The notes below the pieces were generated by a model that saw nothing but the letters and a program-made list of their open reading frames with translations, did not search any database and was not told the DNA's origin. Of a stretch of 10,482 nt of DNA, positions 3,373 to 4,664 are shown in pieces. The stretch lies in the IMG/VR virus record IMGVR_UViG_2534681701_000011; one strand, given 5' to 3'. The position numbers were made by a program, and so were the translations under genes. This stretch comes from a virus (Duplodnaviria; Heunggongvirae; Uroviricota; Caudoviricetes). Each line of letters starts with the position of its first letter. Position 1 is the first letter of the stretch.

Positions 3373-4664
3373 TCACGCCGCCCTCACGATATAGTTAAAC
3401 GCGATATTGCGGGGGCGGGTTATGTTAAAGAATGCTCCGTTTAATTCGGCTTTTGCGCGACTGTTTGTTCCACCCAGAATTACGTACCACAAATAATCGC
3501 TACGGTAATTCCCCGCAAACACCTTATCGCCGCCATAGTCAATATTATTTCCGTTACTCATGTACGAGATATCAAGCGAAGAATCGTTATCGTCATGACC
3601 GCCGACCAGTGTACCTTTCTGCCATGAAAGCAACTTACGCCCCTCGTCAATCTTGCGCCCGTCGTCCCATCCACGGATAAACTCACCGCGTAAATCGGGA
3701 AGACGGAGGGTCGGGTAGACTCTGGCCAGAACAGGATATTGTTCTTTTGTAAAGGCGCGCCCGTCGCACTTTAACCAGCCTGCTGGCGGTGTGGCGGTGG
3801 GCCATGGAACCGGTACACCAACAGGCAATGCAGAGCCTTCCCCCAAACCAAGGTAATTGAGGACATCTTTTATACTGCCCTTAGCGATAATAGCGCGACC
3901 AATAGCTGTAAGGGTTGCCAGCGCTGCGCGGTCTGCTCCGGTAAAATAAGGCAACCGATCTGCTGCAGTGGCAAGTCCTGCCAGAGCAGTGAGCGTGGCA
4001 TCTGCCGGTTGTTTTCCGTTTGCCAGATCGTATGCAGCCTTGACCGCTTTCGGTGTGGCGGCCAGTATTTCAGACGTGCTGTTGATGGCACTGCTCAGTT
4101 GTACGGTGCCTTTTGCCGTCAGCGAGGCAGCAGGCACTCCCGTTATCTGACTCCACGGGTGAGTGTGGCTGACGGGCGCCTTGCCGGCTGCAAGGTCGTA
4201 TGCAGCCTTGACCGCCTTCGGCGTGGCAGCCTCAGTTTCTGATTGACTGTCCGTGGCGCTGCTCAGTTGTACGGTGCCTTTTGCCGTCAGTGAAGCCGCA
4301 GGCACTCCCGTTATCTGACTCCACGGGTGAGTGTGGCTGGCAGGCGCCTTGCCGGCTGCCAGGTCGTATGCAGCCTTGACCGCTTTTGGTGTGGCGGCCA
4401 GCGTTTCAGAGGTGCTGTTGGTGGCACTGCTCAGTTGGGTGAACCCCTTAGCTGTCAGTGTCGCGTCCGGGTGGTTACGGGAACGTACGTGTTCAGCCAG
4501 TGACTGTGCGGCTTCCTCCGTTTTCTTCTTCAGCCATTTCGTCCTGTTTGCCAGTTGCCGGGGGCTCGATTTGATATCCCGTCTGCACCACCCAGAACCG
4601 GATCTGATGTCTCCAGTTGATAGATATTTTCTTCCCACTTTTCTGTTTCATTCAGGTTTCCCAT
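3373..4664 (-). CDS. Tail-fibre protein (P2 gpH / lambda Stf-like), apparently interrupted by a 1-nt frameshift at a C5 tract near the 5' end
   Basis: Body (RNHPDATLTAKGFTQLSSATNSTSETLAATPKAVKAAYDLA…GKQPADATLTALAGLATAADRLPYFTG…) recalls P2 gpH; C-terminus NIAFNYIVRAA recalls lambda Stf. An ATG at 4664 overlaps the gpI stop (TGATTATG) with GGGAG upstream, and opens a 44-codon frame (MGNLNETEKWEENIYQLETSDPVLGGADGISNRAPGNWQTGRNG*). The long frame continues in +1 from the run at 4560-4564. Confidence 0.8.
3653..3851. repeat. Right arm of the perfect 199 bp inverted repeat
   Basis: Reverse complement of 3653-3851 is identical to 2235-2433. Confidence 0.9.
3838..3863. other. Right 26 bp crossover site (gix/cix/hix-like)
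   Basis: TTCCCCCAAACC-AA-GGTAATTGAGGA; compare the recalled hixL TTCTTGAAAACC-AA-GGTTTTTGATAA. Sits at the outer edge of the right inverted repeat, inside the fibre coding sequence. Confidence 0.6.
4012..4455 (-). repeat. In-frame tandem repeats in the tail-fibre gene: 168 bp (56 aa) unit, about 2.6 copies
   Basis: Protein repeat TAKG(F/T)xQLSSAxxSxSExxAATPKAVKAAYDLAAGKAPxSHTHPWSQITGVPAASL occurs twice in full and once in part. At DNA level GGCACTCCCG starts at 4133 and 4301, and CTGCTCAGTTG at 4091, 4259 and 4427 (period 168). Confidence 0.85.

Follow-up and report, generated by a model that had tools for sequence, protein, structure and literature searches.

A probable single-nucleotide homopolymer deletion predicted to inactivate the tail-fibre gene of a Mu-like Escherichia coli prophage

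Introduction

In the G segment of phage Mu (S/S′, inverted by Gin), the C segment of P1 (Cin) and the P segment of e14 (Pin), a constant tail-fibre N terminus is combined with alternative C-terminal cassettes; inverted repeats flank the segment, a serine invertase adjoins it, and a tail-fibre assembly gene lies inside it. The prophage locus described here is built in the same way, and it further resembles Mu in that the prophage ends in …CA and its sites differ between strains. Unlike Mu, P1, and e14, however, it has one chaperone gene for two cassettes, with a third cassette in EC958. Unlike Mu Sv/Sv′, its receptor-binding parts are Collar-domain modules, and the constant part is frameshifted in the sequence under study.

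Two further kinds of system bear on such a frameshift. Contingency loci and the −1 frameshift of the G/GT tail assembly chaperone have, as this locus has, a mononucleotide run where two overlapping tail-gene frames join. In mismatch-repair-proficient enterobacteria, contingency tracts are longer than 5 to 6 nt. The present locus departs from both in that its run is short and unconserved, the split is confined to rare alleles, neither a slippery heptamer nor a stimulatory structure is found, and the homologues are one ORF. With homopolymer frameshift pseudogenes of prophages, in contrast, it shares an intact ancestral allele, a one-base change of the run, an early stop, and untouched neighbours. 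Nothing material differs from that class; in this case the lesion is isolated and early and the invertase is still active. In kind, the finding is thus an ordinary homopolymer frameshift pseudogene of an already known type, and it involves no new mechanism.

The sequence analysed, hereafter the window, is the whole 10,482-nt stretch of DNA. Its reverse complement is found unchanged as L016:1-10482, where contig AQET01000023.1 of assembly GCA_000356165.2 ends.

Results

On the minus strand, an ATG at 4664-4662, with a GGGAG Shine-Dalgarno sequence at 4678-4674 and a 9-nt spacer, opens a frame of 44 codons (MGNLNETEKWEENIYQLETSDPVLGGADGISNRAPGNWQTGRNG) that ends in a TGA at 4532-4530, as an earlier note on this DNA, made from the letters alone, had described. 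The same note had the ATG overlapping the stop of gpI, which was a misreading: the gpI-like TGA at 4669-4667 is followed by TT and only then by the fibre ATG. The long fibre ORF stands in the ORF list at 3373..4638 (-), with 421 aa. Its GTG start agrees with the note, and so does the junction of the two frames, a coding-strand CCCCC run (GGGGG on the + strand) at 4564-4560; relative to the frame of ATG 4664, however, the fibre frame is −1 (equivalently +2) and not +1. Insertion of one C into the run yielded …ISNRAPRQLANRTKWLKKK…, a single product of exactly the 430 aa that had been predicted. This repaired product matched P0152, an intact protein already on record, with 100% identity.

GTG 4638 was also considered as the true start of a shorter fibre, and this candidate was rejected. 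It lacks a Shine-Dalgarno sequence, it is out of frame for the first 25 codons, and none of the 13 fetched homologues has a start equivalent to it. The split reading proposed by the earlier note thereby came through the comparison that could have overturned it. The next start picked by gene callers downstream gives 310 aa only.

Beyond the run, the fibre CDS carries Phage_fiber_2 repeats and a C-terminal Collar-domain receptor-binding part, as indicated by Pfam. Its PDB matches are Mu protein S (5yvq, 8ju3) and T4 gp37 (2xgf), and the fibre repeats match the Mu protein S structures. The repeat copy number differs among homologues, the protein length ranging from 430 to 743 aa; across the phage group, fibre length is highly variable via repeat number. 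The coordinates of these and the other features are collected in Table 1.

Table 1. Features of the split tail-fibre gene and of its surroundings in the window
Feature	Position	Strand	Basis or remark
Serine DNA invertase, 190 aa, Gin/Cin/Pin type	1596..2168	-	Pfam Resolvase and HTH_7
Second inverted-repeat arm, within the alternative variable cassette	2232..2460	.	Repeat analysis; sister breakpoints
Silent alternative fibre C-terminal cassette	2240..2752	+	Pfam Collar
Tail-fibre assembly (chaperone, tfa) gene, 204 aa	2752..3366	+	Pfam Caudo_TAP
Rest of the tail-fibre CDS, −1 frame versus ATG	3373..4559	-	Pfam and PDB matches
Inverted-repeat arm inside the fibre gene (I1: 229 nt, 96% complementary)	3626..3854	.	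Constant/variable boundary; breakpoints between sister assemblies
Three tandem 168-nt (56-aa) fibre repeats (family D1)	4013..4516	-	Repeat analysis
Tail-fibre 5′ fragment	4530..4664	-	Native ATG, 35 native codons, 9 out-of-frame codons, TGA
C5 homopolymer, 1-nt deletion versus ancestral C6	4560..4564	-	PhiKM alignment; run lengths counted in all fetched loci
Baseplate/tail protein I (gpI-like), directly upstream of the fibre	4667..5245	-	TIGR01634 tail_P2_I; PF09684

The run was then compared with that of relatives. Phage PhiKM (PQ738613), which is 99.5% identical to the window over the 4.6 kb that aligns, has C6 and one annotated fibre CDS right after gpI. Likewise, the EC958 genome (L004) has an uninterrupted ORF of 443 aa from the same ATG (8057-9388). 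All 13 fibre homologues fetched from the protein search were continuous; they start with MGNLNETEKWEE… and read …NRAPRQLANRT… over the site. Their N-termini have the form MGNLNETEKWEE[N/K]IYQLETSDPVLGGADGISNRAPRQLANRT, so that the first 35 fibre residues are invariant in 13/13, the one N/K position aside. At the same site the more distant Klebsiella phage KP12 reads …CGCCCACTCAAG…, without a homopolymer, and its fibre is also continuous.

The stretch is present in 589 of 5,426 complete E. coli genomes. An exact C5 match was obtained for one of them, Ec-23, with both the 281-bp and the 71-bp query, and this 1/589 is a lower bound on C5 carriers, "C5 plus one SNP" and "C6" both scoring 98.6% with the 71-bp query and being indistinguishable there. 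All non-identical matches listed align over 72 or 282 bases, that is, with one extra base. Since both halves of the split match one continuous protein found in hundreds of genomes, the split is not a chance ORF pattern. The ancestral run is C6 in a single ORF.

Several features mark the prophage as Mu-like: PhiKM belongs to Bcepmuvirus, Mu-type head/terminase genes (DUF935, Mu F/G-like, DUF3486) are present in the ST131 copy, and the element occupies different chromosomal sites in different strains. In the window, the prophage end, …CA, lies at 1518 within rihA. The other late genes of the window do not differ in length from those of EC958 and PhiKM; they comprise the end of the tape-measure gene and the gpU-, X-, D-, V-, W-, J-, and I-like genes. 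The fibre lesion is isolated and early, without evident general decay, and the prophage is otherwise intact-looking.

The host gene was itself broken twice (window 749-1518 and 1-751). The prophage end (…GCGCATCA, to 1518) cuts rihA at about codon 45, and the left end of an IS1 (GGTGATGCTGCCAACTTACTGAT…, from ~751) replaces its last 12 codons; the leftover rihA ORF matches RihA residues 52-299 of 311.

As in Mu, P1, and e14, an invertase, inverted repeats, two Collar cassettes, and both segment orientations were all found. The 1.6-kb segment (2232-3854) lies in one orientation in L019 and L022 and in the other in L016-L018, L020, and L021 (L016 to L021 being sister assemblies); both orientations occur among sister isolates, and therefore the invertase is active. 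Upon inversion the alternative cassette joins the constant part, and the 443-aa fibre of L022 and EC958 ends with it. The chaperone gene points away from the fibre in the window and is co-oriented with it in EC958 and L022. Thus, in the window orientation, the expressed cassette is without a co-oriented chaperone, and the single tfa goes with the other cassette. The third cassette of EC958 hints at multi-site inversion.

The source is a 2013 Illumina draft contig of the enterotoxigenic E. coli (ETEC) clone "P0298942.x", and the strain names attached to proteins from these contigs are E. coli P0298942.1,.6, and.14. By its strain names, the AQET01 accession would belong to the study of Sahl et al. 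2015 (PMC4462620), in which ETEC isolates were obtained in Dhaka with several colonies per patient. In that study, Illumina HiSeq2000 sequencing of the isolates reached an average coverage of >200x, and assembly was done with Celera Assembler. Six assemblies have the same truncated rihA (L016-L021), and all six have C5; pairwise, they differ by 0-3 scattered substitutions and no indels over ~10 kb. The singleton differences within L016-L020 are nearly all T versus G (for example, L016 837, 2218, 2235, 2787, 3647, and 9834), and sporadic substitutions were never common to two sister assemblies. These T/G singletons are probably platform or consensus errors, not within-patient SNPs.

The nearest independent genome was L022 (GCA_049980085.1), which comes from another project and differs from the window by one SNP in the aligned ~10 kb. 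It carries the same rihA insertion, yet with C6 and an intact 443-aa fibre. Most simply, therefore, the prophage entered intact and the deletion occurred later in situ. The C run is the sole true indel of the locus versus both EC958 and L022. The remaining runs of >=5 nt are concordant in L016 and L022, in 25/25 cases in the collinear 6.8 kb and in 6/6 cases in a further 1.5 kb; a G/C run of length 6, however, would occur there only as the restored C6, so that the comparison holds no internal control for this run class.

The C5 allele was also encountered elsewhere. The 421-aa GTG ORF, which exists in the C5 allele only, is also recorded under E. coli 2862600, outside the patient series, and a 434-aa GTG ORF, likewise specific to C5 and with the segment in the other orientation, is recorded under a third-party (TPA) assembly accession; both records count in favour of a real deletion. 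Ec-23 (L003, ST131) is ~99.4% identical to the whole window and has different flanks. Over ~15 kb aligned, it is identical to EC958, the flipped segment aside, except for the C6-to-C5 change at 20144-20156. This C5 is either an independent deletion or a lone homopolymer miscall.

Such calls raise the question of whether the strain of the window is truly C6 with an intact fibre and its consensus merely dropped one C, as the earlier note had also proposed under the heading of sequencing error. For other assemblies with C5, that proposal held. L005 shows 22 single-base homopolymer deletions in 16 kb, the fibre run included, with one substitution only, and in L006 and L008-L013 aroA, serC, and many phage genes are chopped into pieces. 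In these several noisy long-read assemblies, C5 is plainly artefactual. In an exact N-terminal peptide look-up, C5 was found on 265+18 (283) contigs, the identical 44-aa C5 peptide being called on 265 of them, versus C7 on 1 and C4 on 4, and a deletion bias of C5 over C7 is what long-read undercalls would be expected to give. The C6 of the near-identical L022 and the sporadic substitution errors of the sister assemblies, with their scattered T/G differences, also speak for an error in the window and count against a real deletion.

For the window itself, however, the evidence was different. The series fits an Illumina project of >200x coverage (a link made through strain names), and this platform is not prone to miscalling a homopolymer of 5 versus 6. 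Six isolates, each sequenced and assembled on its own, all have C5, and their sporadic errors were never shared. Furthermore, no other indel versus EC958 or L022 was found over 10 kb with >30 runs of >=5 nt, nor did L016 show any further homopolymer indel. A dropped C in the consensus of this strain is thus unlikely, though it deserves more weight than any functional role of the run.

Discussion

We consider a genuine, recent, lineage-specific 1-nt deletion (C6 to C5) in codons 35-36, which knocks out the fibre, to be the best reading of the locus, with a probability of roughly 0.8. The run length is taken from consensus sequences, not from reads, and C5 is presumably what the reads contain. 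The relatives are continuous, a one-base change of the run is followed by an early stop, and the allele is reproducible, with the caveat that six sister assemblies represent one clone, one sequencing batch, and one assembler, to all of which a systematic error would be common. Of the explanations offered in the earlier note, an inactivating mutation is therefore the one we favour; the decaying prophage that went with it is not borne out, the late genes being of normal length and the segment still flipping.

The simplest history of the deletion would be as follows. An intact phage would have transposed into rihA, and one descendant lineage would later have lost a C. Ribosomes starting at ATG 4664 would then lose the fibre frame upon reaching the C run and terminate after 9 further codons, releasing a 44-aa peptide, and the remaining 395 fibre codons would be without a usable start. 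By analogy with other contractile-tail fibres, the first 35 residues are the end that docks on the baseplate. The lesion belongs to the constant N-terminal part and precedes both the inverted repeat at 3626-3854 and the invertible segment, so that both alternative fibres would be lost; hence, any particles still made should lack tail fibres and be non-adsorbing. The expected phenotype would accordingly be one of fibreless, non-infectious particles, and no adsorbing virions are expected from the prophage of the P0298942 ETEC clone.

A functional slippery tract was the third explanation proposed by the earlier note, which saw in it a means of modulating fibre expression. The run could act as a contingency switch, or C5 could be rescued, either through transcriptional slippage or through tRNA-Pro slipping by −1 from CCC to CCC. 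Re-pairing of tRNA-Pro in the P site by −1 on C-CCC would indeed regenerate the native …APRQL…, C5 and C6 both occur within one prophage-insertion lineage, and C5 is seen on several prophage backgrounds (Ec-23, L007, and L014). If repeated toggling were real, it would explain the appearance of C5 on several unrelated backgrounds. However, a run of 5-6 is shorter than the tracts of mismatch-repair-proficient enterobacteria, its length was uniform in 6/6 sister isolates with no mixing of ON and OFF within the clone, and the tract is not conserved, as the KP12 homologue illustrates. With about 1/589 complete genomes "off", the C5 state is rare.

Programmed recoding fared no better. The two-frame layout is absent from homologues, which argues against it; no X XXY YYZ heptamer was found at the run, and the fold of the 106 nt downstream, searched for a stimulatory RNA structure, was no better than shuffles (z = +1.4). 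The length bias of the peptide look-up is what clonal inheritance together with long-read undercalls would produce, and it does not fit switching in both directions. We therefore find the modulation claim unsupported and regard a functional slippery tract as very improbable. Equally small is the chance that, in lysogens or phage populations of this widespread Mu-like prophage, fibre production is repeatedly toggled through the C6 run, whether as an off-switch that recurs and may be under selection or by −1 slippage at a low level on CCC-C.

With a real deletion as the preferred reading, annotation should merge the 44-aa "hypothetical protein" with the 310/421-aa "tail fibre" into a single frameshifted pseudogene. 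Many public assemblies show the C5 call again as an artefact of long reads, and it should not be taken for biology without a read check. Beyond annotation, the finding has little importance.

The annotation of this gene is irregular in public records more generally. RefSeq splits the fibre into several "partial" pseudogenes and one short CDS for the C terminus in EC958 (L004, 8057-9388) and in AR_0013 (L015, 9017-10111); the split occurs even where the ORF is intact (EC958, 443 aa), and in several genomes the 5′ end with the C run is unannotated. NCBI records give many intact fibre homologues the name "short-chain fatty acid transporter", and in PhiKM (L001, 4550-4894) an antisense ORF in the fibre region is named "Fe2+ ABC transporter permease". 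These transporter names, on the fibre homologues and on the antisense ORF alike, are evidently propagated misannotations.
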